Below, in pieces: positions 2,603-48,840 of a stretch of 64,000 nt of DNA. The first letter of the stretch is position 1. Each line of letters starts with the position of its first letter. The notes beneath the pieces were generated by a model. The model was not told the origin of the DNA and searched no databases. It saw nothing but the letters and a program-made list of their open reading frames with translations. The DNA comes from Candidatus Daviesbacteria bacterium (GTDB lineage Bacteria > Patescibacteriota > Microgenomatia > Daviesbacterales > UBA10151), in contig JACPKP010000003.1 in NCBI GenBank assembly GCA_016186955.1, positions 2,290-66,289 on the forward strand, read 5' to 3'. The position numbers were made by a program, and so were the translations under genes.

Positions 2603-2678
2603 GCCGTCGTAGCTCAATGGACAGAGCTACCCCGTCCTAAGGGGTAGGTTGGAGGTTCGATTCCTCTCGACGGCGCCA
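2603..2678 (+). tRNA. tRNA-Arg (anticodon CCT)
   Basis: Acceptor GCCGTCG/CGACGGC, D-arm GCTC-AATGGACA-GAGC, anticodon stem ACCCC/GGGGT with loop GTCCTAA (CCT), T-arm GGAGG-TTCGATT-CCTCT, discriminator G, encoded CCA. Confidence 0.8.
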
Positions 2679-2679
2679 A

Positions 2680-3366: not shown

Positions 3367-3421
3367 GCAAATTTTAAATTTCGAATTTTAAATTAAAAAT
3401 TATTGTTGTACAATAAAAGAT

Positions 3422-4606: not shown

Positions 4607-4609
4607 CGT

Positions 4610-6123: not shown

Positions 6124-6161
6124 TTAGTATTTCCCGCAACATCGTTTGATACAATACTCAT

Positions 6162-7550: not shown

Positions 7551-7554
7551 ATAT

Positions 7555-19900: not shown

Positions 19901-21937
19901 TCAACGTATGTCTATGTGTTAGGTGGGAATACCGGTAGCGGTGTCATTTCCACAGTCTATAAATCCACCCTAAATTCTACAACAGGTGATTTAGGCGCTT
20001 TCGCCACTACCAATCAGGCACAATTGTCCCAGCCTTTTTGGCGGCATTCCTCTGTTATCTCTGTACTGGGCCCTTCAACTTATTTTTATATTTTGGGTGG
20101 TTGTGATAATAATTCTTGTACTGCTTCGACAGTCCGTTCCACTGTCTATAAATCAGCCCTCAATACTGACCCAATTGTCCAAACCTTTGCCACCACCTCC
20201 CAATCCCAACTGCCCCAGGTAGTTAAAAACTTCTCTGCCAATTTTACAACAATTTTAGGCACAAATTATATTTATGCCATAGGGGGGGACAGTGGGGCCA
20301 GCTCAGGTACAGGTGATGCAGGCACATTTGACACCACTTCCCAGGGGCAACTGCCGCTTGATGTTAATGCCTACAGACCCTTTAGTGTGAATATAGGTGC
20401 ATCTACTTATGTCTATGTAGTTGGTGGATTTTCCGGCAGCCTCAATAATAAATTGTCTACCAACTACAAAGCTACATTAAATAATACAACCGGTGATGCA
20501 GGCACATTTGCCACCACCAGCCAAGCACAACTTCCTACTGCTTTGAGGAATCACGCCTTGATTAGCACAACAGTGGGCATCTCAACTTATGTTTATACAA
20601 TAGGTGGGGAGAACATCTCCACGGTCTATAAATCCACTATTGTTGGGTCCGGCGCTAATGCCGGCGATCTTGGTACATTTGCTACCACTTCTCAGTCTCA
20701 ACTGCCTGAGGCTAGGAAACAATTGCCGGCCGCTTTGGCCGCAATAGGGTCATCTCAGTATGCTTATGTGGTTGGAGGTTATAATGCTAGCGGTACCAAT
20801 AAATCTACAGTATATAAAGTCAGTATAAATAGTTCATCCGGCGATCTTGGTACATTTGATACCACTTCTCAGTCTCAATTACCCCAAGTCTTGGCTGCTC
20901 ACTCACTGATTGTTCAAACTATTGGTTCATCTACTTATCTTTACGCCGTAGGGGGAGAAAATGGCGGTACTAAATACAGCACCAACTACAAAGCTACATT
21001 AAATAATACAACCGGTGATGTAGGCACTTTTGACACCACCAGCCAGGGACAATTACCCCGCTCTCTGACAAGCTCTACCGCTATTAATGTCAGCGTCGGG
21101 AGCTCATCCTATATTTATGTATTAGGAGGGGATCCGGGAGGTCTGGCAGTATCCACTGTTTATAAAACTACTATTAATGGCACAACTGGTGATGCAGGCA
21201 CATTTGCCACCACCAGCCAGGCCCAATTAATCCGTACTAATGCACAAAATACGGTTTTAACATCAACTGTTGGCCCTTCCTCTTATCTCTATTTCATCGG
21301 GGGTTGTTTGTCCACTAATGGTTGTGCAAATAGTGAAGTGCAGTCTACAGTCTACAGATCCATCTTAGGTTCAACCAAAATAGCAGAATCTACTGTTTAC
21401 AAATCTACTGTAGATTCAAGCGCCAATGTGGGGAGTTTTGCCACCACTGCCCAAACCCAGCTCTCCACTGCCCTGCAGTCCCACGGAACTGCTTTTTTCC
21501 AGAACAGCTCACCCTACCTTTATGTTATAGGCGGGTGTGTTTTTGGAGGTACGCCATGTGGCATAGCAGATACCCGGCAGACAATTTATAGGACTTCCAT
21601 TACTTCCTCGACCGGAGATGTGGGGGCATTTTCCTACTCTGCCAACGGGCTGCCCATAGTTTTAAACAAACTTACAACTACAACTGCCACCTTAGGCGCC
21701 ACCACCTACCTGTATATCTCAGGGGGGGCATTGGGGACAACAGACCAGTCCACATTTTACCAGTCCAGGATCTCCAACTCTGAATTTGACACCCAGATCC
21801 AAAATGCCACAGTCGCCAATTCCTGGCTGGTTGTAGATGTATCATCACTCCAGATCCCCGAGAACCTGCTGGGGTTTTTGCCATTAGGATTATTGTTACC
21901 CAAACTGATGAAAAAGTTCCGGAGGCAAAAAGATTAA
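10973..21937 (+). CDS. Giant (3654 aa) multidomain surface protein: IS481-like transposase HTH region, membrane-embedded processive GT2 glycosyltransferase, ~36 tandem Kelch-like beta-propeller repeats, PEP-CTERM-like (PEN-CTERM) sorting tail
   Basis: Single uninterrupted ORF. aa 1-170 contain two transposase-type HTH motifs ('ISRTLLYRWINR','VSRTAFYKWLERY') plus a 'VQNVLKRHSLN' HTH_32-like segment. TM helices follow. The GT2 domain ('VSIHLATYNEKRV...VVIVDDSTEQ...FDADF...RQRMRWAEG...WFRTPKTG') is followed by cellulose-synthase-like C-terminal TMs. An anchor helix 'GKIILASFVIVFILL' precedes a Ser/Thr-rich region and the repeat '...ST(V)YKSTLNSTTGDAGAFATTSQGQLP..(h)SAV(s)T.VGPSTYIYVLGG...'. C-terminus: 'QIPENLLGFLPLGLLLPKLMKKFRRQKD'. 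Confidence 0.75.
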   Translation: MSAKLTAKERTKVIKRALKGENISGLCREYKISRTLLYRWINRCKLAQKKREERQLRPQDRQEMIERVKLGENVAKVCSLYNVSRTAFYKWLERYEQAPEGHKLEALWDKQPKVERYFNQASEEYEEAVLSAVREYPELSSHKLVWALPQVGGKPILSNHGVQNVLKRHSLNTYGLRLAYSKAYYKPTALSRFFAFIQSVLAAVTAQPAQRRNVLVRGSFVFALTIFSLVTVYGLFSLSRLVLGAGGVALSLGLILSLIALGFGMFFFLYSLKYYITIAMVLSFSRRSDEENLKSQNSNLKSASQILNPNHQRKSFLQNIQGTGRDDVIKYQGGLGLKADLSGVILDRQPFVSIHLATYNEKRVLERLLTAATAQEYENYEVVIVDDSTEQESIDILNKWKKHPRVKVIHRESREGYKGGALREALKISSPRTEFVLVFDADFIPYPDTITSFLKYFKLTVGNLETKHSTSNVAAVQGYQWHVLNKSENWITRGVKSEYSGSYVIERSGEELYSGLKQIAGSVYMIRADVLKELGWGTSITEDFQLTLRLYERGYKVVFTPYIQAPAEAVSTIKRLIRQRMRWAEGHSHNIKKMLIPLLTSKNLTWAEKFEVLYLTPYYLQAAFFIFGTLCWFLAEVVFRVTLPFWTSTWGWSLVLTNLFALPLMNLVGLFLEESNEKDYLGLPAFMALSYVVAPFQGYAAIKGFLEKEEGPWFRTPKTGRITDVFTPGKLYKFVFGWLGKTVKHSANPAIGQINRMYSQEQLAEFAAMSEDNVTLSETKGINISFANAQDDRGRIYQTQPNVVVLAISKAVSKLTVNQFSIFIFQFLMNFQWFKRLNSKLKKIAASLALLAPRNDGGRSPHLAVSSSFNTFNYFKSLNSLNHPVPAPNRLVGKIILASFVIVFILLNQAALFNQYTVDLRHMSIKAKEGGPISRKLAAGAPLPIDPTIEQQINITTQEYSTQSITDMPTDNSLGLVRYTAASYTSPTTYFEAVIKNSNSSTTTASLYDSTGAYVAGSAVTATGATYTRVRSAAITLTTGTDYTVRLRSSPGNGAISSGTASIIAARIIVVQATDSNITNTETQVEVGDNETTSKVDLTPLSNPKYFKFDPTKYDAGSITAYFEATLKASNNTPAATSTGPNSPSSCADDGAVGTLTWTNDSNATAQDDQTAVMQGTDNGTSEYEECVGFSFNLAPTDTVAGVLLEADIYSSGTSTRPIIDNSVKLSQAGTITGNDQATTDAWPTSDTDTYTSWGSSSNLWGVSWTPADINDPNFGAGISARKTTTAGNPGTGKIDHVRMTVYYTPAAAAQTATAELYNRTDGLAVTESSVSTSNLTWTRARSSALSTNWDTTNADEYEVRVKTSDTTANASIANAKVVLVQNVAGGIGNVELYHNYINAPESQNSASVGTFSTTNQGQIPLVRMQGSSVINTIGSSTYVYVLGGCNAACSSTTDTSTVYKSTINNVTGDAGVFSTTSQGQLVTENSDNAVVTSSLGGTTYIYEIGGDNGARKSTVYKASINSSGDIGTFATTSQGQMPAILGSISSNSITVGPSSYIYILGGAPATGQSSTVYKSTLNSSNGDAGAFATTSQQQLPIKVRDHTSVSTTVGPSTYIYVVGGESAAFSSAVYKSTIDSSGDVSAVFATTSQGQLPQISSQHYAVLTAVGQSTYLYTMGGSPDGGTTVVSTVYKSTLDSATGDLSTFSTTNQQQLVPLTFGLSANAALVGPSTYLYVLGGYNGSSALSTVYKAPLSNDFDSFGYNNLYNSNDWIGGTFTFYQESTLKQTQAGVTANSRLTPGGIGNVSSTLMPNAANGNFGVFATTSQGQVPEINSNLSSSTAMVNGSTYIYVLGGNNDSANQSTVYKSTVNSTTGDAGAFATTSQGQLPQILEGLQTRSLAVGSSTYIYTLGGYTGTAYKSTVYKSTLKAASDSTNGDAGAFATTSQAQLPLTNGNFGSTILTSGASTYIYVIGGASTASVSYSTNYKALIDPTTGDIGAFATTSQAQLPAAGQRLGVTSAVIGPSSYLYVGGGCSGCGTPVSTFYKATIDPTTGDIGTLATTNQAQLPTALRQFNITSTIVGPSTYLYVFGGCTGGVSCGNQSTVYKSTLNSSNGDAGTFATTSQGQLAQPLIWVGGSGAIASAGPSTYLYVLGGLNTSSVSISTVYKSALQQNPYERQRSGDITSYLNGSLAANAGTFDTTNQAQLPKMFRQHSAVSTQIGNSTYVYVLGAFTDLSSVLSTAYKSTLDNNTGNLSLFNTSNQAQLLQAFRLAATTSLSVGVSTYVYVLGGFTSSANISTVYKSTINSATGDLGTFDTTSQGQVPQALRSHTINSAQIGVSTYIYVLGGVNTGGSDISTIYTSTVNSATGDLGTFDTTSQAQLPRVGSSFASITQSVGPSTYLYVIGIQGNTSVYRSVINSTSGYLGVFDTTSQGQLVQNTTQHSAIATVLGPSTYIYVLGGSSMSTIYRAALNSSTGNINTFTTTSQSQLLNISRENTAIIANTGPSTYIFQLGGFDNGSSTTFSTVYKSVLTEDLTPGNLNVIQTTYQGQLPAALSSHATVVGRDQGVNYIYQLGDNPASTVYKSAIDANGYAGTFATTNQAQLTQTLKNLQAVSASYGGTTYIYTIGGDNGSAITSTVYRANSNGTSGNLTVAFATTSQAQLPQGLQNHQAVIGATSGDNYIYALGGCNLTGFCAASSTQSTVYKANIKVSADAQTFATTSQKQLLKISEAPASVTATMGSSTYVYVLGGYDQGGVINSTVYKTTLNSTTGDAGAFATTSQGQLVVGLQYQSALVSTIGSSTYLYVLGGYNGSDLSTVYKTTLNSTTGDIGAFATTNQGQLVQINESHASVTTAVGPSTYVYVLGGTSDGGTTIFSTVYKSTINSTTGDIGAFATTSQQQLPALREKLASFVAAMGPSTYVYVLGGAEASVKSTNYKATLNASGDIGAFATTSQGQLPNIIYMHSAITSTIGSSTYVYVLGGNTGSGVISTVYKSTLNSTTGDLGAFATTNQAQLSQPFWRHSSVISVLGPSTYFYILGGCDNNSCTASTVRSTVYKSALNTDPIVQTFATTSQSQLPQVVKNFSANFTTILGTNYIYAIGGDSGASSGTGDAGTFDTTSQGQLPLDVNAYRPFSVNIGASTYVYVVGGFSGSLNNKLSTNYKATLNNTTGDAGTFATTSQAQLPTALRNHALISTTVGISTYVYTIGGENISTVYKSTIVGSGANAGDLGTFATTSQSQLPEARKQLPAALAAIGSSQYAYVVGGYNASGTNKSTVYKVSINSSSGDLGTFDTTSQSQLPQVLAAHSLIVQTIGSSTYLYAVGGENGGTKYSTNYKATLNNTTGDVGTFDTTSQGQLPRSLTSSTAINVSVGSSSYIYVLGGDPGGLAVSTVYKTTINGTTGDAGTFATTSQAQLIRTNAQNTVLTSTVGPSSYLYFIGGCLSTNGCANSEVQSTVYRSILGSTKIAESTVYKSTVDSSANVGSFATTAQTQLSTALQSHGTAFFQNSSPYLYVIGGCVFGGTPCGIADTRQTIYRTSITSSTGDVGAFSYSANGLPIVLNKLTTTTATLGATTYLYISGGALGTTDQSTFYQSRISNSEFDTQIQNATVANSWLVVDVSSLQIPENLLGFLPLGLLLPKLMKKFRRQKD
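15190..21790 (+). repeat. Coding tandem array of ~36 Kelch-like ~60-aa repeats (~180 nt period) inside the giant gene
   Basis: Reiterated 'STVYKST(L/I)NSTTGD(A/I/L)G(A/T)FATTSQ(G/A)QLP' plus '...VGPSTY(I/L/V)YVLGG' units, seen directly in the translation. Copies are divergent at the DNA level but some are near-identical (e.g. 19255-19330 vs 19435-19500). Confidence 0.8.
21854..21934 (+). other. C-terminal PEP-CTERM-like sorting signal (PEN motif - TM helix - basic cluster) of the giant protein
   Basis: 'IPEN' + 'LLGFLPLGLLLP' + 'KLMKKFRRQKD' mirrors the tripartite PEP-CTERM architecture (PEP - hydrophobic - Arg/Lys-rich). Confidence 0.6.
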
Positions 21938-23506: not shown

Positions 23507-25561
23507 ATGATACAAACTGTCTTGGCTCTCTCCCAATTCTTTATCAATAACTTCCCTCCGCCAGCTGGCGGATGGTGGTACCCATACTGGTATTTGGGCA
23601 ACCCTTACCATTATCTGATAGGGCCGGTGGTGCCAATAATATTGGCAATTATAAATTTCAAATTTCAAATTTCAAATTTTGGATTTCCAATATATTTAGG
23701 GTTGCTGGGAGTGTCATGGGTGGTTGGAGGAGTGGGGGTGTATCAGCTGGTAGAAAAGCTATCTCAAACCTCAAATCGCAAATCTCAAATCCTTTATGCT
23801 TTACTATTTATGTTCCTGCCCTTCTCGTTGTTTCTTTTGGCTTACTCAAATGGGTTGTATCACTTTGCCTGGGGGTTTTTGCCATGGGTTTTTGTGGTAT
23901 TTTTACGCTTTCTTGTCGGATCTCCCATGTCATTGCGAGACCACAAAGTGGCGAAGCAATCTAATTTAATAAAGATTGCCGCGCTCCCTTCAGTCGCTCG
24001 CAATGACGAAGAAAAAAAGGGCATAAAAATTGCCCTGTTGCTTAGTATTTTGGTATCCTTTGTACTGTTGGTAGATGTTTCGATACTGCTTCCAATGCTG
24101 GTAGGGTTTGTTTGTTTAGGGGTGGTAATCAAGGATATTAAAGGAGTTAAGGGAATTAATGGGGGCGGGGAATATCAGGTTTTTAAAACTTTCTTTGTAT
24201 TATTGTTTGCCCTAAGCCTGGCTACAATCTGGTACACACCCGGGTTTTGGCTGACCCTGTTGCAAAACCCCTCATTTGGTGGGATGCCGCTTGTTAATTT
24301 GGGGAAATTTTTATTCCAGCTGCTTTTGAACCTGGTCCCTATCCTGGCAGCGGTTTGGGTGGTCAAGCTGAGAATGAAAAATTTGTCCCGGACAGCATAC
24401 TTCGGGCTGCTTTTTTTGTCATCATTTCTTTTTCTTACTATAATAAGGTATTTATCTGATCCTGATTTTGTGCAGGACTGGATCGGGTTTTTTATAGAGA
24501 TCCAGTTTGGGTTGGCGATTTTGCTGGGCTCTTTTTTGTCATCCTCGCGTATGCGGGGATCTTTTAGAAGATTGATTCCCGCTTTCGCGGGAATGACAGT
24601 ACTATTGGTATTTATTGTAAAAGGTTGGATGGGTGGCGAAAATGTAAAATATCAATCCAAGATTGTATCCATGCTGAAAAATGTGCCCAAAGACGAGCGG
24701 GTGTTTCTTTCAGGCACAAGCGTTTTTTGGGCTAACCAATACCTTGATATTATACAGGTGAGGGGAGGGGTAGACCAGGCATCAATCCATCCTTACTGGG
24801 CTGATGGGGCATACCAGATTAGGGAAGGGGAAAATAGTGAGTTATCTTTAAACTGGCTTAGGGCTTTAGGCGTAAGCTGGATTTTAGTGCATAGTGGAGG
24901 GTCAGATGAGCCTTACAGGGATTTTAAGCGCCCTGAGAAGTTTACCCAAATTTGTCATCCCCGACTTGATCGGGGATCCATTTTGGAAAAGGATCCTCGC
25001 ATTCGCGAGGATGACACAATATGTAAGATTGTTAAGGGAATTAAGGGGGATACTCTATATAAGGTAGGCGGGGCAAGCATTGCCAGGGTGGCTGATAAAT
25101 CAATATTGGAGGTTAAAAAACCAAAAAACGGCGCAGATGCCCAAACATTGGCAAAATATGTCAACACCTTCAAAATACACCCCGGGGGTTCACCCCCGGG
25201 GTGGGAAAACAGGCCTGGCTTTACGAACGTAATTGAGGTAGATGCTGATTTGGGAAAGGATGAGGTGATCTCTTTGGCGATTGCCTATGACAGGGGATGG
25301 CAAGTTCAACAGTTCCACCCGGGGGGTGGAACTGGAGGAGTGAGGCTGGTCAAAGATAATCTGGGTAATATAGTTTTGATACCTGGTGCAGTCGGCCGGA
25401 TCAGCTTGAGCTTGGTTTATCAGACCCCGGTTTGGGAGAGGGCAGCGCCTGTTTTGATATCTTTGGTGCTTCTTTTTATATTGGTAAATTATGATAAATC
25501 CTATCCCGGGATGTCCCGAATCCTGGCTAAGGTGGGGCATGGATTAGGGGAGGAAGAATAA
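23507..25561 (+). CDS. large polytopic membrane protein (possible GT-C-like) carrying multiple in-frame mini-element insertions
   Basis: 684 aa, many TM helices ('WWYPYWYLGNPYHY' N-terminal region). In-frame copies of heptamer repeats (ISNFKFQISNFGF at 23640-23700), a GTCAT-family half element (23966-24006), two hairpin MITEs (24537-24597, 24954-25015) and caccccgggggtg palindromes (25178-25204, ~25318-25335). Confidence 0.5.
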   Translation: MIQTVLALSQFFINNFPPPAGGWWYPYWYLGNPYHYLIGPVVPIILAIINFKFQISNFGFPIYLGLLGVSWVVGGVGVYQLVEKLSQTSNRKSQILYALLFMFLPFSLFLLAYSNGLYHFAWGFLPWVFVVFLRFLVGSPMSLRDHKVAKQSNLIKIAALPSVARNDEEKKGIKIALLLSILVSFVLLVDVSILLPMLVGFVCLGVVIKDIKGVKGINGGGEYQVFKTFFVLLFALSLATIWYTPGFWLTLLQNPSFGGMPLVNLGKFLFQLLLNLVPILAAVWVVKLRMKNLSRTAYFGLLFLSSFLFLTIIRYLSDPDFVQDWIGFFIEIQFGLAILLGSFLSSSRMRGSFRRLIPAFAGMTVLLVFIVKGWMGGENVKYQSKIVSMLKNVPKDERVFLSGTSVFWANQYLDIIQVRGGVDQASIHPYWADGAYQIREGENSELSLNWLRALGVSWILVHSGGSDEPYRDFKRPEKFTQICHPRLDRGSILEKDPRIREDDTICKIVKGIKGDTLYKVGGASIARVADKSILEVKKPKNGADAQTLAKYVNTFKIHPGGSPPGWENRPGFTNVIEVDADLGKDEVISLAIAYDRGWQVQQFHPGGGTGGVRLVKDNLGNIVLIPGAVGRISLSLVYQTPVWERAAPVLISLVLLFILVNYDKSYPGMSRILAKVGHGLGEEE
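24537..24597. repeat. Hairpin MITE, GTCAT...ATGAC family (in-frame in CDS)
   Basis: 'gtcatcctcgcgtatgcggggatc-ttttagaa-gattgattcccgctttcgcgggaatgac'. Terminal inverted repeats plus the internal hairpin cccgc-tttc-gcggg. Encodes 'SSRMRGSFRRLIPAFAGMT'. Confidence 0.6.
24954..25015. repeat. Hairpin MITE, GTCAT...ATGAC family (in-frame in CDS)
   Basis: 'gtcatccccgacttgatcggggatcc-attttggaaaa-ggatcctcgcattcgcgaggatgac'. TIR gtcatcc/ggatgac and two internal hairpins. Confidence 0.6.
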
Positions 25562-25918: not shown

Positions 25919-28372
25919 ATGTATAGTAAGTTGACAGCGGTTTTGGCAATATTTTTCAGCTTTCTGGCTTTTATCCCCAAACCTGTATTTGCAGCTCCCG
26001 GGACCTTGGACTTAAGCTTTGGGACAAATGGCATAGTCAGTACAGAATTTAGTGCGGACCCGGATGCAACTGACGGTACTTTTGCACTGGCCGCAAGTCT
26101 TCAGCCTGATGGGAAAATAGTGGCAGGCGGGTTTGGTTTTACAGGTACAGACTGGGATTTTGCTGTAGCCAGATATAATCCTGATGGTTCGTTGGACACC
26201 ACATTTGATAATGACGGTAAGGTTATGACTTCGTTTGGTTCCACAAGTGAGATTTTAGCTTTAAAAATTCAAGAAGATGGAAAAATAGTGGCTACAGGGG
26301 ATGTTTCCAGTACCACAACCACTTCTGATTTTGGTTTGGTCAGGTACAACAGTGACGGTTCTCTAGATTCTACCTTCGGAATGTCAGGTAAAGTAACAAC
26401 TGATTTTGGTGGCAGCGAGTCCCCTCAGGGTTTAGTTATTCTGAATGATGGCAAAATAATGGTGGCAGGAAACAAAGATGAGAATTTTATGTTAGTAAGA
26501 TATAACTCTAATGGGACTTTGGATACTACCTTCGGTACAAATGGATATGTTGTAACTGATTTTGGTGGTGTTGATGGTGCAACCAGTCTGCTTTTGCAAT
26601 CCGACGGTAAGTTGGTCGCAGGGGGATACAACGGTACAGATTTTGCTTCAACCAGATTTGCTGCAGCCAGGTATAATTCTGACGGTTCTTTAGATACTTC
26701 TTTTGGCACAGGTGGTAAGGTGACCACTGATTTTGGTGCAACATCTATTGCATTCTCCTCGGTTTTACAAAACGATGGTAAAATTATTCTAGCGGGTGAT
26801 GTACGTTTGGCAAATCTTGATTTTGCTTTAGTAAGGTATAATACCGACGGTTCGCTTGATACTGGGTTTGGGAATGGAGGTAAGGTAATAACTGATTTTA
26901 ACAATACCGATGAAGAACTTTTTGCAATAGGGATTCAGACAGACGGTAAAATCCTTGGAACCGGTATGAATAATGGTTTGAATGGGACTGTGTTTGCTTT
27001 GGTCAGATACAATATGAATGGAATGCTGGACACTGATTTCGGGACAGCAGGGAAAGTTACTGCAGAGCTTGGAACTGGTGATAATGCCCAGGCTTTCGCA
27101 TTAGCCATCCAGACTGATGGGCAAGTAGTAGTTAGCGGAATTATATTTAATGGCCCTAAAGCTACTTTTGGGTTAGCTCGGTTTAATACCTCAACTTTAG
27201 AAAATGTTATCCAAACCGTTTCTGCAGGAGGCAGTTTAACCTCTGATTCAGAAAATGATGGTGCAACCAGTGTTGACCCTATTGAAACTACTGTTACCAG
27301 CCCCACCGGTGGAGAAGTTTCTATCAGCGAAATCACCCCCAGCCTACAGCCCCCTTCAGGCTATTCCTTCCTGGGTTCTCAGGTCAATATTACCGCCCCT
27401 GCTGCAACAGCGGAAAACCCGCTGCAGCTGGTGTTCGTTTTAGATTCTACAGTAGTAGCCGGGGCTGATGTCAGTACCATACAAGTATTAAAAAATACTG
27501 TGCCGGTTCCGCCTTGTTTAGGTAGCCCGGGTGTAGCGTCCCCGGATCCGTGTGTATCTTCCAGGACGCTGCTTGCCGATGGGGATGCGCAGATAACAGC
27601 ATTAACTTCAACTGCCAGCAGTTGGAATTTAGCCCTGCAAACTAATTCCGCTCCGCAGCTTTCTCTTACCTCACCTTCCGTCGGGCAGCTGTATGCTTTG
27701 GGAGATGTTGTCAACCTGCAGGCTTCCTTTACTGACTCAAACAGCAGTGATACCCATACATGTGATATTAACTGGGATGACGGCAGCAACAGCCAGGGTG
27801 TAGTGGTTGAATCAAAAAGTTCTTGCGGGGCAAGCCACAGCTTTGGTAGCGCCGGGGTTTACACCATAAATACCACCTTAACAGACAGCCAAGGGGCAGC
27901 TGATGCTAAAAGCGTGATGGTAGTTGTGTACGACCCGAGCGCAGGGTTTGTGACAGGAGGGGGATGGTTGAACTCACCTGCGGGTGCATATACTGCTGAC
28001 CTGGGTCTTGCCGGTGTAGCCAATTTTGGTTTTGTTGCCAAGTACCAAAAAGGAACCAATCTGCCAACAGGGCAAACCGAGTTCCAATTTAAAGTTGCCG
28101 GTTTTAACTTTCACAGCGACAGTTACGAGTGGTTGGTGGTGGCAGGAAGCAAAGCACAATATAAAGGCTCAGGTTCAGTAAACGGGGTTTCAGGTTATAA
28201 CTTTCTTTTAACCGCAACAGATGGTGAGACAAAAGATAATCCGGATAAGTTCAGGATTAAAATTACCAAAGGCAGCCAAGTTGTTTATGATAATGCCTTA
28301 GGCGCCTCAGATGATATTGACTCAGCCAACCCGCAAGAGCTTGGCGGAGGGTCCATTATCATCCACAAGTGA
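25919..28372 (+). CDS. secreted delta-60-repeat (beta-propeller) protein with PKD domain
   Basis: Signal peptide 'MYSKLTAVLAIFFSFLAFIPKPVFA'. At least 8 repeats of 'DGSLDT(T/S)FG.NGKV.TDFGG' (delta-60 repeat pattern). The PKD-like segment has 'CDINWDDGS'. Confidence 0.7.
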   Translation: MYSKLTAVLAIFFSFLAFIPKPVFAAPGTLDLSFGTNGIVSTEFSADPDATDGTFALAASLQPDGKIVAGGFGFTGTDWDFAVARYNPDGSLDTTFDNDGKVMTSFGSTSEILALKIQEDGKIVATGDVSSTTTTSDFGLVRYNSDGSLDSTFGMSGKVTTDFGGSESPQGLVILNDGKIMVAGNKDENFMLVRYNSNGTLDTTFGTNGYVVTDFGGVDGATSLLLQSDGKLVAGGYNGTDFASTRFAAARYNSDGSLDTSFGTGGKVTTDFGATSIAFSSVLQNDGKIILAGDVRLANLDFALVRYNTDGSLDTGFGNGGKVITDFNNTDEELFAIGIQTDGKILGTGMNNGLNGTVFALVRYNMNGMLDTDFGTAGKVTAELGTGDNAQAFALAIQTDGQVVVSGIIFNGPKATFGLARFNTSTLENVIQTVSAGGSLTSDSENDGATSVDPIETTVTSPTGGEVSISEITPSLQPPSGYSFLGSQVNITAPAATAENPLQLVFVLDSTVVAGADVSTIQVLKNTVPVPPCLGSPGVASPDPCVSSRTLLADGDAQITALTSTASSWNLALQTNSAPQLSLTSPSVGQLYALGDVVNLQASFTDSNSSDTHTCDINWDDGSNSQGVVVESKSSCGASHSFGSAGVYTINTTLTDSQGAADAKSVMVVVYDPSAGFVTGGGWLNSPAGAYTADLGLAGVANFGFVAKYQKGTNLPTGQTEFQFKVAGFNFHSDSYEWLVVAGSKAQYKGSGSVNGVSGYNFLLTATDGETKDNPDKFRIKITKGSQVVYDNALGASDDIDSANPQELGGGSIIIHK

Positions 28373-28437: not shown

Positions 28438-30549
28438 ATGTCAAATCTATTCAAATCACTTAAAGATACCAAAATTCAACTGCTTATCATCCTCGCTCTG
28501 ACTTTTTTGGTTTATGCCAATTCATTGCCAAATAAGCTGCTTTGGGATGACCATTTATTTTTAGAACAGTGGCCGCAGGTACAAAGTTTTAAGAACCTGG
28601 GAGAGGTCCTTAAAGGCTCTGCGCCTCCTTCACAAGGCAAGATCTACAGGCCCTTGCGGGGGGTGTTTTATATGATTGATTACCGGCTCTTTGGGGCAAA
28701 CCCATTTGGGTATAGGGTCCAGGCTGTTTTAATCCACCTTATCAGCACACTTTTAGTCTATTTTATAGTTAGAGAAATTTTGACAAAACATTTCACCCCG
28801 GGGGTGAAAAATTTGAGATTACACCCCCGGGGTGGGGGATATTTACCTTTCATCACAGCCCTTCTCTTTGGCCTGCATCCCATCCACACCGAAACCATTG
28901 ATTATATCTCAACCAGTATGGAAAGTTTTGGGACGGTGTTTTTCTTTTTGAGCTTCTGGCTGTATTTATTGGCTCAAAAGTACACCCTGAAAGTACAAAA
29001 CCGGAGTGAGAATGCATGGTTGTATTTAGCTTCCGTAACCAGCGCTGCCCTGGCTTTTTTTACCTATGAGATGACGCTGACTTTGCCCATCCTGATAGTG
29101 CTGTATGAGCTAACCTTGGGTCAATTTCAAATTTCTAATTTCAAATTTCTAATTAAGATATTGCCTTACTTTGTGGCAGCTATAATCTTTGTGGTTATCA
29201 GGTTCAGCGTGCTTGGTTTAATCTCTAGGACAGATTACCTGGGTTATAGCTTTTACCTGACCCAGCTTACCATGGTGAAGGTTTTTGTGCGCTACATTGG
29301 GCTTTTACTTTTTCCGATTAACCAGACTGCCATCCACAACCTGGTGGGGGATTTTCCCTCCTCAATGATCCCTTATGATAAACTTGAACCTGTTTTAAAC
29401 CAGACCATCTTTGATAAAGATGTCTTGCTTGCTATATCAGTGGTACTGGGGCTGATTTTGGCAGCAGTTAAATATATCAGAAAATATCCAATTGTATCAT
29501 TTTCAATTTTATGGTTTTTCATAAGCCTGTTGCCTGTCTCTTATATCATTCCGCACGGCGGAGCCATGGCAGAAAAGTACCTGTATATCCCATCATTTGG
29601 ATTTGTACTAATAATCGGCTTCCTTATAGTTCAAAGTGCAAAACTTAAAGTGCAAAATTATAATTTAAAGCTAAAAAGTTCTAAGTTTTACACTATAGTT
29701 TTTACCTTTACACTTTTACTTCTAATTTCCTACTCCGTACTAACCATTCAAAGAAATACTGTTTGGAAGGATGACATTTCGCTTTTTTCCGACGTAGTTA
29801 AAAAATCACCGGAAAACCTGTTGGCAAACTACAATTTGGGCATCTGGTTTGGCAACTTTAACAAGCTTGAGGAAGCCGCAGCCCATTACCAGATAGCAAT
29901 TGATAAAGCCCCTGATTTTTTGGAGGCAAGGTATAACCTTGGGAATATTTACGCACGGGTTGCGCAATTTGAAAATGCTACAGCGCAGTACACGTATATT
30001 TTAAATATTAACCCCGGCCATAAACAAAGCCAAAATATTTTAAATAACATGGTTCTTTTAAAAACAGCATCTCCTTCAGCCCTGCTTAATTCCCCAAACC
30101 TGATGGTAGGTTTTACAACTAAAAATGGGTTGCAGTTTTCTTTCCCTGCCTTCTGGTCTAAGGGTGAGTTAAGGAAGGCAGTTTCAGAAAAAGAGACCAA
30201 AACAGGAAAAACTACACCTGTTAGCGATGAGGCTGTCGGCACCAGCCTTGAGTCTCCTGACGGGTTCAAAATCCAAATTATTGAAGACAGTTTGGGGAAA
30301 AAGAATATGGAGGAATATATAAATGGCCAAAAAGAGACCCATGGTAAGCTGGTAAACCAGGGGTTGGCCCAAATCCCGAATGCAGAGGGTGCTTTTGTTA
30401 AGGTTTGGGAAGGGGATGGTGTAACAAAACTCCAGTTCTTTCTTTTTATAAAGAAAAAAGTAATCCAGATAATAGCCTATCCGGCCGGTTTACCTTCAAT
30501 GCCGATTTTTGATGCCTTTTTAGGGTCTTTGAAGCTACATGACACATAA
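28438..30549 (+). CDS. TMTC-like (DUF1736) GT-C glycosyltransferase with C-terminal TPR repeats and conserved C-terminal 'YPA' module (paralog A)
   Basis: N-terminal 'LLIILALTFLVYANSLPNKLLWDDHLFLEQW' (loop-1 acidic motif of GT-C O-mannosyltransferase-like enzymes) and ~11 TM helices. TPRs ('YNLGIWFGNFNKLEEAAAHYQIAIDKAPDF...'). C-terminal 'KLQFFLFIKKKVIQIIAYPAGLPSM'. In-frame palindromic element at 28794-28834 and heptamer repeat at 29118-29150. Confidence 0.65.
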   Translation: MSNLFKSLKDTKIQLLIILALTFLVYANSLPNKLLWDDHLFLEQWPQVQSFKNLGEVLKGSAPPSQGKIYRPLRGVFYMIDYRLFGANPFGYRVQAVLIHLISTLLVYFIVREILTKHFTPGVKNLRLHPRGGGYLPFITALLFGLHPIHTETIDYISTSMESFGTVFFFLSFWLYLLAQKYTLKVQNRSENAWLYLASVTSAALAFFTYEMTLTLPILIVLYELTLGQFQISNFKFLIKILPYFVAAIIFVVIRFSVLGLISRTDYLGYSFYLTQLTMVKVFVRYIGLLLFPINQTAIHNLVGDFPSSMIPYDKLEPVLNQTIFDKDVLLAISVVLGLILAAVKYIRKYPIVSFSILWFFISLLPVSYIIPHGGAMAEKYLYIPSFGFVLIIGFLIVQSAKLKVQNYNLKLKSSKFYTIVFTFTLLLLISYSVLTIQRNTVWKDDISLFSDVVKKSPENLLANYNLGIWFGNFNKLEEAAAHYQIAIDKAPDFLEARYNLGNIYARVAQFENATAQYTYILNINPGHKQSQNILNNMVLLKTASPSALLNSPNLMVGFTTKNGLQFSFPAFWSKGELRKAVSEKETKTGKTTPVSDEAVGTSLESPDGFKIQIIEDSLGKKNMEEYINGQKETHGKLVNQGLAQIPNAEGAFVKVWEGDGVTKLQFFLFIKKKVIQIIAYPAGLPSMPIFDAFLGSLKLHDT
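28794..28834. repeat. GC-rich palindromic mini-element (caccccgggggtg - N15 - cacccccggggtg), in-frame
   Basis: Encodes 'TPGVKNLRLHPRGG'. Homologous copies at 44436-44476 and 53125-53165, with partial copies at 39030-39050 and 25178-25204. Confidence 0.65.
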
Positions 30550-32664: not shown

Positions 32665-34813
32665 ATGAAGTATTTTCGGTCGACGAAAGTTCAGATATTA
32701 ATAATAATTTTAGCTACTTTTTTAGCTTATTTAAACATCTTCCAAAATGGGTTTGTGGTAGATGATGAGGATTTCATAGTTAACTGGAAAGAAAAGCAGG
32801 AGATCACAAACGTTCCCCTGATGTTGAAGGGTAATAATCCACCTAAGTTTGGAGGGATATATAGGCCTATTAGAGGAGTATTGTACACATTTTATGATCA
32901 AATATTCGGTGCTAACCCTTTTGGTTACCACCTCCACTCAATCCTGGTCCACCTAGGGGTAACTGTTTTGGTTTACTTTATAACCAGGCAGCTTATACAG
33001 GGTTTAGGGTCTAGGGGTTGGGGTTTAGGGTTGGAAGTTAAAACTAAAAAAAATTCAACTATACCCTATACCCTACCCCAAAGGGGTAAGCTCCGCTTAT
33101 ACCCTATACCCTTTATTTCTGCCCTGCTTTTTGGCCTGCACCCTATCCATACTGACCGGGGTCTTTTTTATGCTTGCAGCGCTCCATCTTTATTTAATTG
33201 AGAAAAAAATGTATTCATATATTTTTGCAATTCTTGCCTTCTTTAGCTATGAACCTGCGTTAGTTTTAATACCCCTGCTGGTTACTTACGACGTGTTAAT
33301 TAAAAAAATACCATTAAGGGAAACGCTTAGTAACATTAAAAAATATTTGCCGTATCTGCTGGCAGGGTTAAGCTTTATTTTTATCAGGCTGGTATTAATT
33401 GGGCGGAACCCTGCGCATTTTAAATATTTAGCAGACAGCTTTTACCATACCCAGCTTATAATGACGAAGGTTTTTGTCAAATATTTAAGCCTGCTTATAG
33501 CCCCGTTTAATTTATCCTTAAACCACATCATAGACCCTGACTTTGAAACTTTTAACCCGCCTGTTAATGATTTTAAGTCATTTACCTCCCAGTCAATCCT
33601 TGACCCCTGGGTTATTACCTCAATTTTAATCATAGCCACCCTGATATTTATAACAATAAAATTTAGAAATAAGCTGCCTCTGGTTTCATTTGGGCTGGCC
33701 TGGATTTTTATATCTTTCCTGCCTTATGCCAATTTAGTTCCACAGCCTACCCCGCTTGCAGAAAGATACCTATATATAGCATCATTTGGCTTTTGTTTAT
33801 TACTGGGATACCTTTTAGTGGAAATTTCAAATTTCAAATTTCAAATTTCAAATTATTTTCTTTTTACTCTTTTCTTTTTACTCTTTTCTTTTTACTTCTA
33901 CCAGACTTACCAAAGGAACAAAGACTGGAAGGAGAAAGGCAGCCTTTGGCAGAGAGCTTTAGTTTATTACCCAAACAGCGCTTTCGCAAGTTATATTATG
34001 GCTAGGGTGAACCAGGAAAAAGGCAACCTGCCGGAAGCTATAAAATTTTACAACCAGACTGCAAATCTCCAACCAGGCTATGTAACTGCATATCTGGAAT
34101 TGGGTAGGCTTTACCACAAAAACAACCAGCTGGATAAGGCGTTAGAGGTACTAGTCAAAGCTACACAGCTTGAGCTTGAGCCGATAGATGAAAACAGGTT
34201 GGATGCATCTATCGGAGAGCTGGCAAAAGTTTACACTGAGATAGGATTTATCTACCGGGAGAAAAAAAAGTTTAAAGAGGCCTACACTAACTTTGAACAG
34301 GCGCTATCGTTATATTCAGGATACTTGCCTGCAAAGGTAAGCATTGAAACTCTGTTAAAAGATCATCCTGAGCTAAACGAACTGGCTAAAATTTACTCAA
34401 TGGAGAATTGGACAGAATATCATTCAAAATCCGGGCTGTCTTTTCAGTACCCCAAAATATGGGATATTAGTGAAAATGATGGGCAAATTCATATTTTTAC
34501 AAAAGATAAAAGCGCTAATATTGAGATAATTGTTGATGGGTTTTCTACATCAAAAGAAGAATATCTTAAAAATCAGACAGATATGCATGGAATGTTGGTA
34601 AACCAACGGTATACCAGGCTGCCTAATGCTGATAATGTTTATGCCAAGATTTGGAACGATCCTACGCCGGAAAGCACCGGAAGTGGAGTCCCGAAGCTGC
34701 AATTTTATGTTTTCAAACCCAAAAATGTCATTAAGTTATTCGTTTACCCAGCTGAAATTTCCTTGAAGGTAGTTTTAGACAGTCTAATGCGGAGCTTAAA
34801 GTTAACAATTTAA
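32665..34813 (+). pseudogene. TMTC-like GT-C/TPR glycosyltransferase paralog split by +1 frameshift next to a ~170-bp palindromic element (fragments 32665-33201 and 33131-34813)
   Basis: The N-terminal fragment ends right after the element-encoded '...LYPIPFISALLFGLHPIHT'. The C-terminal fragment resumes at 'TGVFFMLAALHLYL', so ~15 aa of the conserved core (ETIDYISTSMESFG in paralog A) are missing and the frame changes. The C-terminal part retains TPRs and the 'KLQFYVFKPKNVIKLFVYPAE' module. Confidence 0.5.
32985..33152. repeat. ~170-bp G/T-rich palindromic insertion element (copy 1)
   Basis: 'cagcttatacagggtttagggtctaggggttggggtttagggttggaagttaaaactaaaaaaaattcaactataccctataccctaccccaaaggggtaagctccgcttataccctataccc...ccatact'. 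Nearly identical to 35163-35330. Arms 'ggggttggggtttagggt' / 'accctataccctacccc' are partly complementary. Confidence 0.7.
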
Positions 34814-34829: not shown

Positions 34830-36912
34830 ATGGAGACAAAATTCAAATTTCTGAAACAAACCAAAATTCAGGTTTTAATCATTGTTTTGCTAACCCTTTT
34901 GGCTTACTCCAACATCTTTCAGAATGAATTTGCTGTTGATGACCTTTATCTGATCGTCAAATGGGAGAGGATACATAACTTATCAATTATCCCGGAGCTT
35001 TTTGTAAAGGATACGTTGGAAACAGGCTATACAGGTTACAGGCCTCTGCGTACAACAATCATCGCTATTCTTTACAATATTTTCAGGGAAAATACATTCG
35101 GCTATCATTTGTATTCAATTCTGGTGCATCTTAGTTCAACTCTTTTAGTCTATTTTTTAGCCAGACAGCTTATACAGGGTTTAGGGTTTAGGGGTTGGGG
35201 TTTAGGGTTGGAAGTTAAAACTAAAAAAAATTCAACTATACCCTATACCCTACCCCAAAGGGGTAAGCTCCGCTTATACCCTATACCCTTTATTTCTGCC
35301 CTGCTTTTTGGCCTGCACCCTATCCATACTTAAGCCAAAACTGATGCTTTTGTCCTCAATCCTTCTCGGGGTATTGGCATATTTGACTTTTGAGATCACC
35401 TACATCCTACCGCTGTTGATTTTTGCCGCTGAAATAATTTTATTCCCCGGCAAAATTAAATCCCGGTTAATCAAAGCTTTCAAAATAACACTTCCTTTTA
35501 CCCTGATTGTAGCAATAATTTTTCTCATCAGGTATCAGGTATTATCGCTAGGGGAATTTAAGGTAAATTATTTGGCGGGCAGTTTTTACTTAACTCAGGT
35601 ATTGATGCTGAAAGTACTACTCAAATATCTTCTTCTGCTGATTTATCCTGTGAATTTATCGTTAAACCACGTTATCTCCGGGAATTTTGAAACTTTTCGG
35701 GTGAACATCAATAGTTTTGATTGGTTTATTCATCAATCTATCCTAGAACCACAACCAATACTTGCATTGTTAATTGTTATATCACTAACGCTTTTGGTAT
35801 TTTGGTGCAGAAAGAAAAATCCCCTGGTATCGTTTTCAATAGCATGGTTGTTTATCAGCTTTTTACCTTTTTTTAACCTCATACCCCAGGCAACCGCTCT
35901 TTCGGAAAGGTATCTATATGTTGCCTCGTTTGGGTTCATACTTTTTTTATGCTGCGTATTATTTTATTTACCGAAAAAGTTGGGCTTTTTAATATTGATA
36001 TTGCTGGTAATTTCTTATGGAACCTTAACTTACCGTAGAAATTTTGATTGGAAATATGCATCATCGATTTGGGAGGCGATGTTGAGGGCCTATCCTAAAA
36101 GCGCCCTGGCAAATTATTTCGTAGGAACAATCTTTGAAGAGCGCCGTGAAAATGACGAAGCTATTTACTACTACCAGAGATCTTTAGAACTAAATCCCAA
36201 TATGGATTATGCCTATAATAGCCTGGCCTACCTTTATTTTAAACAAGGCAATTCGGCTCTGGCAAAAAATTTACTTCTACAAGAGTTGAAGATCCAAAAT
36301 AAGATATTAGATCGGAATCAAACGGATGTATTGTTAAATTTATCTGAAAGTTATGCCTTGTTAAGCAAAATAGCGCTAAAAGAAAAAAAATTTGATGAGG
36401 CTTTTGAATATTCTCAAAAAGCAATAACAGTAGATGCCGATAACCAAGATGCCTTTTTAGCGCAGGATTTGATATTGGCTGAGAAGCCGGAGTTCAAAAA
36501 AAATGCAGCCCTTTTCGACCCTAAAGGATGGCAACAGTTTACAAATAAAAATTATGCCTTTGCTTATCCTATAAATTGGTCAGCTGAAGAGAAAGAGGGC
36601 AAAATAGTTTTACATCCGTTTAAAAGACAATATGAAATAACTATAGAGAAAATAGATGGTTTTACAAATTCAGACAAAGATTTGTTTTTGAAATCACAAA
36701 ATCAATCTTTTGGAACCTTGGTTAAAGAAGAATCTGCCAAAGTGCCTGATACGGAGTGGGCATATGCCAGGATATGGAATGACCACGAACAACCCAGGCT
36801 TGAGTTTTATATCAGTAAAAAGGGGATAATCTTCAGGGTAATCGCCTTTCCCTCAACGTTCGCTTTAAAAGAAATATTTGATAAGGTCATACAATCCATA
36901 CAGGTATTTTGA
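34830..36912 (+). pseudogene. TMTC-like GT-C/TPR glycosyltransferase paralog split at the same element (fragments 34830-35333 and 35308-36912)
   Basis: The N-fragment terminates with a TAA immediately after the element ('HPIHT*'). The C-fragment resumes ~50 aa further into the conserved membrane core ('LSSILLGVLAYLTFEITYILPL'). It retains TPRs and the 'RLEFYISKKGIIFRVIAFPST' C-terminal module. Confidence 0.5.
35163..35330. repeat. ~170-bp G/T-rich palindromic insertion element (copy 2)
   Basis: Near-identical to 32985-33152 (single-nucleotide differences only). Confidence 0.7.
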
Positions 36913-36918
36913 GTTTTT

Positions 36919-38676
36919 ATGAAAATTTTAGGGATTAATCCCAATCTGCTTCATGACAGCGGGGCAGCTTTAGTTTTAAACGATTGTTTGGCTGCAGCTG
37001 TAAACGAAGAAAGATTTACCAGAGTAAAGCAGCAGCAAGGAGTGCCGGAAAGGTCTGTTTTTGAAGTGTTAAAGATCGCAAATCTGACCCCGGCCCAGAT
37101 TGACCGCATCCATATTGCCGGATACCCGCCTGTAAAAAAACTCTTAGCGCTCGGTAAAACTTTCTTTAGGCTTTTGCTGTTTTTGAAATTCGATCTGGTT
37201 AAAATTTCTTTTTCAAAAGACAAATTCCAGTCTGTTATTTCAAGAAGGATGGCGAAAGGGAAAGGGGAGAGTATGAATATGTTTGTTGAAGCTTTCAAAG
37301 ACATCTGGGACATGGAAAGATTGCTAAATAGGTTAAGAAAGGAAGGGTTTTCGGGAAAGATTTGTTATATCCCGCACCATCTTTGCCACCTCTACGCAGC
37401 TTATTCAGCGTCAGGCTTTTGGGATAAATGCCTGGTGGTGAATATTGAGGGTAGTTCATTTGAATACACAGCTAATGCGTATATAGGGGACAAGGGTATT
37501 TTAAAGGAGGTTGTTTCCACCCCTGACCCTAACAGCGCCGGCCATTTTTATGCAGCTTTTACCGAGCTTTTGGGTTTACGCCCAGGTTTCGACGAGGGTA
37601 AAGTTACAGGATTGTCGGCTTGGGGAAGGGTGGGGAATCTCGGAGAGGAATTTAAAAATCTTTATGAGGTTGCAGTGAAAATGCTCAAACTGGAGAATTT
37701 GAAGCTTAAAATATCGCCAGATGTGTTTTTATACCCATTCTTTTATAGTAGTACCGGCCGGTTGCCAAAATTACTGGAAGGTTTTAAAAAGGAAGAGATA
37801 GCTTGGGTTGCCCAAAAAAGGCTTGAAGATGTAATATGTCCGTTTGTTAAACAACTTTTGGACCAAACCGGCTGCAAACAAATAATACTGACGGGTGGAG
37901 TTGCTGCCAACGTCAGGCTTAACCAGCAGGTAGCGGAGTTGCCAGGGGTTAATGAGATATTTGTATATCCTGGAATGGGCGATTTTGGAAACGCCCACGG
38001 CGCAGCCATTGCCCCGAAAAAAAACGGCCGCATTAAACAGACTAAATTAAATGACCTCTATCTAGGCCCCGAATTTTCTGAAGAGGAAATGGAAAACCTG
38101 CTTTTTGCGAATAAATTAAAATTTAAGAAAATTACAAACGGCCTTGAAGATATAATAGCTATGGAACTTGCGCAGGGGAAAATAATTTGCATATTCAGGG
38201 GCAGGATGGAATACGGGCCAAGGGCATTAGGCAACCGTTCCATCATAGCAGCAACCGAGATCCGGCTCGCCGGAAAATTGAATAAAGCCCTCAACAGGGA
38301 TGAGTTTATGCCGTTTGCCCCTTTAGTGGTTTACCACCTGGGTAAAAAATGTTTTGAAAATATCAACAAAGCAGGATATTGTGCGCAGTTTATGACGATC
38401 AGTTTTAGGGCAAAAGACTATTTTAAAAAATTATGCCCTGCTGCCGTGCACATAGACAATACTTCGAGGCCGCAGCTGCTGCAGAAAAAAACAAACCCGT
38501 TTCTTTACAGAGTCCTTACGCAATACTATAAGCGTACAAAAATTCCCGGCGTTATAAATACTTCTTTTAATATGCACAATGAACCGATCGTCTGTTCACC
38601 GCAAGATGCGATAGGTACATTCCTAAAGTCAAAACTTGATATATTGGTTATGGGAAATTTCCTTGTGCGTAAATGA
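36919..38676 (+). CDS. NodU/CmcH-family carbamoyltransferase
   Basis: 'MKILGINPNLLHDSGAALV...EERFTRVK' (Carbam_trans_N) and a C-terminal domain with 'GRMEYGPRALGNRSI' (Carbam_trans_C signature). Confidence 0.75.
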   Translation: MKILGINPNLLHDSGAALVLNDCLAAAVNEERFTRVKQQQGVPERSVFEVLKIANLTPAQIDRIHIAGYPPVKKLLALGKTFFRLLLFLKFDLVKISFSKDKFQSVISRRMAKGKGESMNMFVEAFKDIWDMERLLNRLRKEGFSGKICYIPHHLCHLYAAYSASGFWDKCLVVNIEGSSFEYTANAYIGDKGILKEVVSTPDPNSAGHFYAAFTELLGLRPGFDEGKVTGLSAWGRVGNLGEEFKNLYEVAVKMLKLENLKLKISPDVFLYPFFYSSTGRLPKLLEGFKKEEIAWVAQKRLEDVICPFVKQLLDQTGCKQIILTGGVAANVRLNQQVAELPGVNEIFVYPGMGDFGNAHGAAIAPKKNGRIKQTKLNDLYLGPEFSEEEMENLLFANKLKFKKITNGLEDIIAMELAQGKIICIFRGRMEYGPRALGNRSIIAATEIRLAGKLNKALNRDEFMPFAPLVVYHLGKKCFENINKAGYCAQFMTISFRAKDYFKKLCPAAVHIDNTSRPQLLQKKTNPFLYRVLTQYYKRTKIPGVINTSFNMHNEPIVCSPQDAIGTFLKSKLDILVMGNFLVRK

Positions 38677-48733: not shown

Positions 48734-48840
48734 ATCTCAAATGTTAAATGTCAAATCTACAACTTAAAGCTAAAATCTTGAAAAAATAGGATATTTGAGA
48801 TAAAGTTTTGAGATTTTCGATTTGAGTTTTGAGATTTTCC
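48725..48840. repeat. Inverted arrays of AT-rich heptamers (aaatNtc ... gagattt) forming a long imperfect hairpin between genes
   Basis: 'tctcaaatgttaaatgtcaaatctacaac...gatatttgagataaagttttgagattttcgatttgagttttgagattttc'. The left arm heptamers are on the + strand and the right arm is their complement. Confidence 0.6.

Follow-up and report, generated by a model that had tools for sequence, protein, structure and literature searches.

The 64,000-nucleotide stretch of DNA analysed here (hereafter the window) comes from Candidatus Daviesbacteria, a lineage of the Microgenomates group within the Patescibacteria group, and between 28.4 and 56.6 kb its plus strand carries nine paralogous genes (A, C, D, E, F, G, J, K and L), each encoding a multi-pass membrane protein followed by tetratricopeptide repeats (TPRs). 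The NCBI annotation describes the products as 'hypothetical protein' or 'tetratricopeptide repeat protein'. Most of them end in the same C-terminal domain, here called the module, which is a real and conserved feature overlooked by current annotation, and which very probably has the Mog1/PsbP fold and is related to the Pfam family PsbP_2.

When the family profile was run over the whole window in six frames, seven full copies of the module were found, all on the plus strand, together with one partial copy (Table 1). A non-circular profile, built from 90 external homologues after every window-derived sequence had been taken out, recovered the same eight places and nothing else in the window, with expect values (E) of 1e-31 to 1e-44 where the copy is full and of 5e-4 at the remnant in paralog F. 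The module is 124-136 amino acids (aa) long, or 149 aa in paralog A, which the alignment shows to carry about 21 inserted aa behind the second strand. Compared pair by pair, the full copies are 24-45% identical, with copy D being the most divergent (24-30% identity to the others). An alignment of the last 170 residues likewise revealed a non-TPR domain common to seven paralogs, truncated in F and lacking in J.

These results bear out the original prediction, which was made from the letters of the DNA, that most paralogs end in a discrete non-TPR domain, and the motif consensus that it gave was reproduced in our alignments. Paralog J, said to lack the module, gave no profile match in any frame, and the copy called degenerate in paralog F is indeed reduced to its opening strands ('IMFFYPEHWKV') and last helix ('LKQLEGLLSSLRVF'), the central sheet of about 60 aa having been lost. 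The places proposed for the copies were also right, but several starts had to be moved, as the domain opens 7-16 aa further upstream at the conserved 'LSFxYPxxW' strand, which that consensus did not include (40083 rather than 40130, 45448 rather than 45470, 54373 rather than 54400, and 56244 rather than 56290).

Table 1. Paralogs, module copies and the upstream secreted protein gene in the window (positions refer to the 64-kb stretch)
Feature	Position	Strand	Length (aa)	Six-frame profile match	E, external-only profile	Remarks
Secreted DUF5122 beta-propeller + PKD protein	25919-28372		817			six DUF5122 repeats; directly upstream of the paralog array
Paralog A	28438-30549	+				MBI2595274.1
Module copy A	30100-30546	+	149	30112-30537	4.8e-35	C-terminus of paralog A
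Paralog C	32665-33201 and 33131-34813	+				split in two open reading frames
Module copy C	34406-34810	+	135	34403-34804	2.2e-34	C-terminus of paralog C
Paralog D	34830-35333 and 35308-36912	+				split in two open reading frames
Module copy D	36523-36909	+	129	36523-36906	4.7e-31	C-terminus of paralog D
Paralog E	38673-40484	+				MBI2595281.1 (HYW46_00925)
Host part of paralog E	38673-40082	+				GT-C domain, 'HDD' motif in first outward loop, TPRs
Module copy E	40083-40481	+	133	40083-40478		C-terminus of paralog E
Paralog F	40489-42468	+				module degenerate
Degenerate remnant F	42241-42465	+	75	42253-42339 (partial)	5e-4	C-terminus of paralog F; profile positions 9-36 only
Paralog G	43852-45822	+
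Module copy G	45448-45819	+	124	45454-45816	2.7e-31	C-terminus of paralog G
Paralog J	45834-47471	+				GT-C + TPR; ends after the TPR region, without module
Paralog K	52498-54783	+
Module copy K	54373-54780	+	136	54376-54762	2.6e-40	C-terminus of paralog K
Paralog L	54780-56627	+				MBI2595292.1
Module copy L	56244-56624	+	127	56244-56624	7.7e-44	C-terminus of paralog L

When 1.84 billion representatives of 50% identity clusters were searched exhaustively with HMMER, 133 clusters of the module family were retrieved at E <= 1e-3, 112 of them at E <= 1e-10. The family is a rare one. For about 100 of the 133 clusters, the protein is 450-880 aa long, contains many hydrophobic segments and has the module at its very C-terminus. 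Most of the shorter matches start within the last transmembrane (TM) segment or within the TPR region, and thus look like fragments from short contigs. Among the 72 full-length members, TPR models matched 60, PMT_2 matched 22 (best E 8e-10) and the TMEM260-like model matched three (best E 1e-16). The TMEM260-like hosts were confirmed by gene contexts in other samples, the short contigs of which carry two or three module-bearing paralogs side by side. The organism names attached to the family, three source names in all, are Patescibacteria with the exception of one doubtful label, and the name borne by one homologue is 'glycosyltransferase family 39 protein [Patescibacteria group bacterium]'. 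A word-indexed protein search with the alignment of the seven copies returned only two relatives, a method too insensitive for this family.

The exceptional label belongs to a metagenome-assembled genome (MAG) named 'uncultured Gammaproteobacteria', in which a 9.4-kb contig (L001, CAYWKL010000032.1) carries two tandem module-bearing genes; the single locus found when a genome collection was scanned with a narrow alignment lies in a MAG so labelled. The label may reflect an error of binning or labelling, or the family may extend beyond the Patescibacteria, and we treat it as doubtful.

An AlphaFold2 model of the module was calculated for copy E with the seven window copies as the only input alignment (predicted local distance difference test, pLDDT, 91.3; predicted template modelling score, pTM, 0.86). 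In the model, five N-terminal strands lead into a short helix, which is followed by four long strands and then by the C-terminal helix (DSSP: E3-6, E11-15, E19-23, E28-32, E38-45, H50-55, E63-70, E77-86, E93-103, E106-113 and H120-129). This is the order of elements of the Mog1/PsbP fold, and the same pattern recurs inside the full-length model of paralog E. Moreover, the module consists of an antiparallel beta-sheet packed by helices that can be superposed on the solved members of that fold. The relatives listed with the module model were, with their scores, BT_1490 (3hlz, 12.9), 3lyd (11.5), LpqN (11.4), Tsi3 (11.3), a cyanobacterial PsbP (11.3, 17% identity), PA0094 (11.2), human and yeast Mog1 (11.0 and 10.8), plant PsbP (about 10), MTC28 (10.0), TplEi (9.9), Apa (9.8), PnsL1 (9.4) and SciW (8.5). 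Independently, a Foldseek comparison matched the C-terminal part of the full-length paralog E model, with probability 1.00, to PsbP 2xb3 (E 1.7e-4) and also to Tsi3, spinach PsbP, CyanoP, BT_1490 and Mog1.

At the level of sequence, Pfam gave no significant match to any window copy. The best was that of copy C to PsbP_2 (PF18933; E 0.014, 15.8 bits), followed by copy K (E 0.15), and the remaining six window copies had no PsbP_2 match. Copy C was also matched by PsbP (E 0.15), and for PsbP proper (PF01789) the best window score was 12.5 bits, below the cut-off of 23.5. The Pfam DcrB model did not match the window copies, and NCBIfam yielded sub-threshold TPR matches only, leaving the module unmatched. 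In the wider family, for which 54 diverse members were taken, 19 were matched by PsbP_2 at E <= 1 (best 1.3e-6) and seven by PsbP, with any other Pfam family matching at most one member. In addition, in the HMMER search the module profile retrieved three proteins (P0133, P0123 and P0130) at E 1e-3 to 3e-7 that pass the PsbP_2 cut-off with 35.8, 33.2 and 45.0 bits, respectively, the last also scoring 35.1 bits with DcrB. When 93 modules, taken from multi-TM proteins only, were compared by hhalign with eight PsbP_2-positive domains, the two profiles aligned over 122 columns (probability 98%, E 3e-13), in a register that pairs the 'SFxYPxxW' strand and the terminal helix of both. A word-indexed protein search with the PsbP_2-positive domain of P0130 found no relatives, the method being too insensitive. 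Taken together, these results place the module in the Mog1/PsbP superfamily as a divergent family, with PsbP_2 its nearest relative in sequence; by the Pfam threshold it lies outside PsbP_2, and it is no PsbP orthologue. The motif, which was not recognised as a known family in the original prediction, reaches the threshold of no Pfam or NCBIfam model, but the fold is a known one.

The proteins that carry the module were characterised mainly through paralog E, the full-length AlphaFold2 model of which (pLDDT 94.1, pTM 0.91) comprises about 11 long helices, four TPR-type helices (residues 413-470, approximately two TPR repeats) and the module (473-603). For the membrane part of this model, Foldseek listed PglB, Pmt4, STT3, EmbA/B, AftA and PimE, and the acidic pair D33/D34 in the first outward loop is nearly invariant in 72 homologues. 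With a multi-TM GT-C fold and an acidic motif in the first outward loop, the hosts qualify as GT-C glycosyltransferases. Pfam TPR models matched eight of the nine paralogs scanned, F giving no match, and among the module-bearing paralogs of the window PMT_2 matched L alone, weakly (E 0.004, below the cut-off). An 'LLFGLHPIHTE' helix occurs in seven paralogs (A, C, D, F, G, J and K); E and L carry 'HPINSE' / 'NPINSE'. For TMTCs, an N-terminal 11-TM domain with a cytoplasmic N-terminus and lumenal C-terminal TPRs has been described, and their DUF1736 loop, between TM7 and TM8, is matched at E < 1e-30 in the human proteins (PMC7801869). The DUF1736 model gave no match at E <= 0.1 in any of the nine paralogs. 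As the GT-C domain, the TPRs and the HPIHT helix are present and a DUF1736 match is missing, the name 'TMTC-like' given to the hosts by the original prediction is right for their architecture, but membership of the TMTC family is not proven.

Paralogs C and D each consist of two overlapping open reading frames (ORFs), broken inside the membrane domain just after the HPIHT motif, so that one or more of the following helices are lost, and the C-terminal modules of both are intact. A 252-nucleotide (nt) segment of C (32902-33153) is 87% identical to one of D (35079-35330). The two genes are probably pseudogenes or products of recent recombination.

The charged segments of paralog E suggest how the protein may be oriented. 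The K/R-rich N-terminus, FRKKSK (around residue 170), WKKKKKG (around 318) and RRLLSHTSGR (around 375) lie on one side, and the DD loop, the long loop 244-295 and the TPR arm lie on the opposite side. Judging from the approximately 11 helices, these positive-inside loops and the TMTC topology, the module is likely to be extracytoplasmic, as is the catalytic loop; the topology of the GT-C family would place the TPR arm there too. The linker between TPR arm and module (blocks 461-480) has pLDDT values of 89-92 in the full-length model, and the module is thus predicted to be rigidly attached to the TPR arm.

The conserved positions of the module are glycines, prolines, core hydrophobic residues and a few polar loop residues (NQG, IPNxD and PxDSP). 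No conserved residue set of a catalytic type is present in the module alignment, and an enzymatic role is therefore rejected as unlikely.

In the window, the membrane domains form two subfamilies, one made up of A, C, D, F, G, J and K and the other of E and L, which are only 21-28% identical to each other, and the modules across these two subfamilies are 38-45% identical, the cross-subfamily pairs A-L (45%) and A-E (41%) being among the most similar. Over the 72 homologues (2556 pairs), module identity stays at approximately 31% for membrane domains with 21% identity and for those with 43% (r = 0.08). Conservation is lowest in the TPR region, both in the window (mean 23%, with about one to five repeats) and over the 72 homologues (25%). 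At the DNA level the module copies are 61-72% identical, and recent gene conversion is thus not the cause of the similarity across subfamilies. As module conservation is independent of the backbone, the most economical interpretation is a single task for the module, alike on all backbones.

An accessory binding domain would be a plausible, ordinary role of this kind, and in our judgement the chances are evenly poised that the module is a putative binding domain for a common partner. As a whole, we lean slightly towards the explanation that it is a PsbP_2-related tail on Patescibacteria GT-C + TPR enzymes, predicted to act as a non-catalytic binding domain. In such a scheme, the hosts would be GT-C glycosyltransferases dependent on polyprenyl-phosphate sugars, with a PMT_2-, TMTC- or TMEM260-like membrane domain followed by TPRs, and the module and the TPR arm would help to build an acceptor- or partner-binding site above the active site. 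The module would recognise something common to all paralogs, for instance a shared envelope partner, a trait that the acceptors have in common or the outer loops of the enzyme itself, and any paralog-specific selectivity would be carried by the variable TPR arm and the membrane domain. A bolder version, which is conceivable and which we regard as rather doubtful, is that the PsbP-like tail represents an unrecognised class of acceptor- or glycan-reading domain for the glycosylation of bacterial proteins or envelope polymers, functionally analogous to the MIR domain of eukaryotic PMTs, which would dock a common feature of surface proteins over the GT-C active sites and would mark a Patescibacteria-specific surface-glycosylation system.

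Several points weigh against the explanation we favour. None of the window copies reaches the PsbP_2 gathering score of 27 bits, and the PsbP_2 targets used for hhalign had themselves been retrieved with the module profile and are therefore the PsbP_2 members closest to the module. Sequence-profile searches of the PDB with 7- and 54-sequence module profiles gave chance matches only (E of about 1), and the full-length profile found only TPR proteins among the PDB sequences, so that the claim of homology rests on fold, profile-profile and transitive evidence. The topology of the module was derived from homology and charge distribution. Moreover, the flat module identity of about 31% could result from saturation, or from domain shuffling between backbones, and not from a shared ligand. 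Finally, paralog J does without the module and paralog F has mostly lost it, so the module is not indispensable for every paralog.

The rival that survives best is a paralog-specific form of the substrate recognition suggested with the original prediction, each copy selecting the protein or glycan substrate of its own enzyme and the gene expansion reflecting a diversification of specificity. It is favoured by the number of paralogs beside a secreted DUF5122 beta-propeller + PKD protein and by the variation among the module copies. Outward accessory domains of GT-C enzymes, moreover, often bind acceptors, as do the periplasmic domain of PglB, the MIR domains of PMTs and the TPRs of TMTCs. However, module identity does not track the relatedness of the catalytic domains, the modules being equally similar between and within GT-C subfamilies, with cross-subfamily pairs among the closest; the loop motifs NQGLAxIPN and PADSPLM are kept family-wide; the TPR arm is far more variable in sequence and length; and paralog J, if functional at all, manages without the module. 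Substrate recognition in this paralog-specific form is thus weakened, and we consider it unlikely.

The indifference of the module to its backbone could also be explained if all paralogs used one donor, and the module might then bind the polyprenyl-phosphate-sugar donor or an envelope lipid and feed it to, or retain it at, the active site, in the manner of LpqN. Relatives of the DUF1795/Eag type (PA0094 and SciW) bind hydrophobic helices, and the products of three DPM1-like genes in the same gene cluster could make such donors. This handling of lipid or donor is nevertheless improbable, as donor binding in GT-C enzymes of solved structure falls to the membrane domain and its loops, and long TPR arms would put the module far from the membrane. 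Donor binding by TMTCs has likewise been assigned to the TM7-TM8 loop (PMC7801869).

Hardly stronger is the case for a purely structural part, in which the module would cap the last TPR helix or mediate dimerisation without binding any ligand. The predicted rigid junction with the TPR arm, the pTM of the whole-protein model and the predominance of core hydrophobic residues, glycines and prolines among the conserved positions are in line with it. PMT-family enzymes work as dimers (PMC7759382), the Pmt4 homodimer is among the Foldseek entries, and the module-less J and degenerate F could pair with module-bearing partners. Yet a 130-aa domain with conserved polar loops (NQG, IPNxD and DSP) in about 100 clusters exceeds what a TPR cap needs, and many GT-C + TPR proteins, including J and the TMTCs, end without it, so that we judge this reading a long shot too. 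That the module is merely a chance similarity or a low-complexity tail is ruled out by the database clusters, the six-frame scan and the external-only profile, together with the compact and confidently predicted fold.

The paralogs belong to a gene cluster that is a surface-glycosylation island. In addition to the paralogs, the island encodes a YfhO-like protein and a further PMT_2 membrane protein, three small DPM1-like enzymes of glycosyltransferase family 2 (GT2), of the kind that makes polyprenyl-phosphate sugars, a carbamoyltransferase, a sugar C-methyltransferase and a B12-radical SAM enzyme. The secreted DUF5122/PKD protein is a candidate acceptor or partner of the paralogs; a tblastn search with this 817-aa repeat protein found no match in six related loci, all of them short contigs. 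Next to the island, a single ORF of 3654 aa (10973-21937), which would encode an unusual giant protein, combines N-terminal transposase-like helix-turn-helix domains, a GT2 domain (around residues 350-660) and a Kelch-like motif. In a related assembly (L005; GCA_034680565.1, JAXOUH010052426.1), module-bearing TMEM260-like genes lie between the S1 protein gene on one side and radA / a LytR_C gene on the other. In the window, S1, radA and LytR_C-like genes are present at 426-8514 without GT-C genes between them; the position of the island thus differs between relatives.

Several short repeats were also observed in and around the paralogs. The GC-rich palindrome CACCCC(G/C)GGGGTG occurs 10 times, compared with 0.06 occurrences expected by chance (sites at 28794-28834, 39032-39044, 44436-44476, 53124-53164 and 25178-25328). 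It is mostly paired about 28 nt apart within the coding regions of A, G and K, where it reads in frame as 'TPGVKxxxLHPRG', with a single copy in E and three further copies in the ORF 23507-25561, and it has the look of a small repeat element that loop regions tolerate. An in-frame insert, GC-rich and about 105 nt long, which reads 'VARG(S/P)AAAVSRRVSSVVxLPAGTRRDPSAxSPLAT', is found in F (about 40845-40950), J (about 46180-46290) and K (about 52875-52985), between the second TM helix and the HPIHTE helix, and is missing from the other paralogs; it may be a second inserted repeat element. Finally, AT-rich short tandem-like repeats of the AAATTTCAAATTTCAAATT type are present at 29626-29676, 33808-33858 and 48725-48775, and also around 45100-45200. 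Several paralogs have them in the loop that precedes the last TM helix, where they read KFQISNFKFQ or KVQNYNLKLK, and the similar stretch at 48725-48775 is intergenic.

Approximately 30 kb of a tiny genome of the Patescibacteria, or candidate phyla radiation, is devoted here to paralogous membrane glycosyltransferases and sugar-modifying enzymes, an investment which implies that surface glycosylation is presumably central to the episymbiotic lifestyle. With the module, proteins annotated as hypothetical or as TPR proteins acquire a three-part architecture of GT-C catalytic domain, TPR arm and putative binding domain. As a soluble domain of 130 aa, the module could be expressed for pull-downs of acceptors or partners. 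It also shows in a new fusion context a fold whose other known carriers (PsbP, LpqN and DcrB) accompany membrane machines as separate proteins, and no description of a PsbP-like or Mog1/PsbP-fold domain on GT-C enzymes was found in the literature and annotation searched. The novelty therefore lies in a new subfamily and a new fusion architecture, and neither in a new fold nor in a new kind of system.

Compared with known systems, the hosts resemble the protein O-mannosyltransferases TMTC1-4 and TMEM260 in having a GT-C membrane domain followed by C-terminal TPRs and an acidic pair in the first outward loop, and some module-bearing homologues match the Pfam TMEM260-like model itself, as noted above. 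Going by general TMTC architecture, the module would be absent from the eukaryotic TMTCs. These are described as ending in TPRs, and the 'LLFxxHPIHT' helix common to seven of the window paralogs and human TMTC3 has the form 'LLFAVHPIHT' in the latter (PMC7801869); in contrast to TMTCs, the window paralogs are not matched by DUF1736. With a soluble domain that presumably faces the same side as the catalytic loop of the GT-C part, the hosts are also comparable to PMTs with their MIR beta-trefoil, to TMTC1-4 with their TPR arm and to PglB/STT3 with their periplasmic domain, and such outward-facing accessory domains are presumed to hold the acceptor (PMC7759382, PMC7801869). The module differs from them in fold, and it comes after the TPR arm and not in its place.

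Among the proteins of the same fold, PsbP, CyanoP and the PnsL proteins are found, as is predicted for the module, on the outer (lumenal) face of a membrane complex (photosystem II or NDH), PsbP acting as a separate protein on photosystem II according to the structure entries. The window, however, belongs to a Patescibacteria genome, which offers no photosynthetic context, and no photosystem genes were seen in the window. Bacterial Mog1/PsbP-fold proteins, those of the DcrB type among them, have been described as associated with membrane-anchored complexes (PMC7716261), and LpqN interacts with the transporters MmpL3 and MmpL11 and has been studied structurally with a lipid mimic (PMC7458404). 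LpqN (6e5d) and DcrB (6e8a) thus share with the module the fold, and they have an extracytoplasmic site by an integral membrane protein and non-enzymatic roles of a binding type (PMC7458404, PMC7716261), both of which are predicted for the module. They are, however, separate lipoproteins with their own lipid anchor and only 8-11% identical to the module, which is covalently fused to a multi-TM protein. A member of this type would be a stand-alone protein with a lipoprotein signal peptide and a match to the family model; the module, fused and unmatched by the DcrB model, qualifies by fold similarity only. The closest comparison is that with PsbP_2, in which the fold, the opening 'SFxYPxxW' strand, and the closing helix and strand are the same. 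The module family nevertheless has its own motifs (G.L.NQGLAxIPNxDxAYVKxW, LQFFLFK and VxPxDSPxMxxFD), and while PsbP_2 domains are soluble or anchored and occur stand-alone or in tandem, the module is nearly confined to the C-terminal end of membrane enzymes of the GT-C + TPR type.

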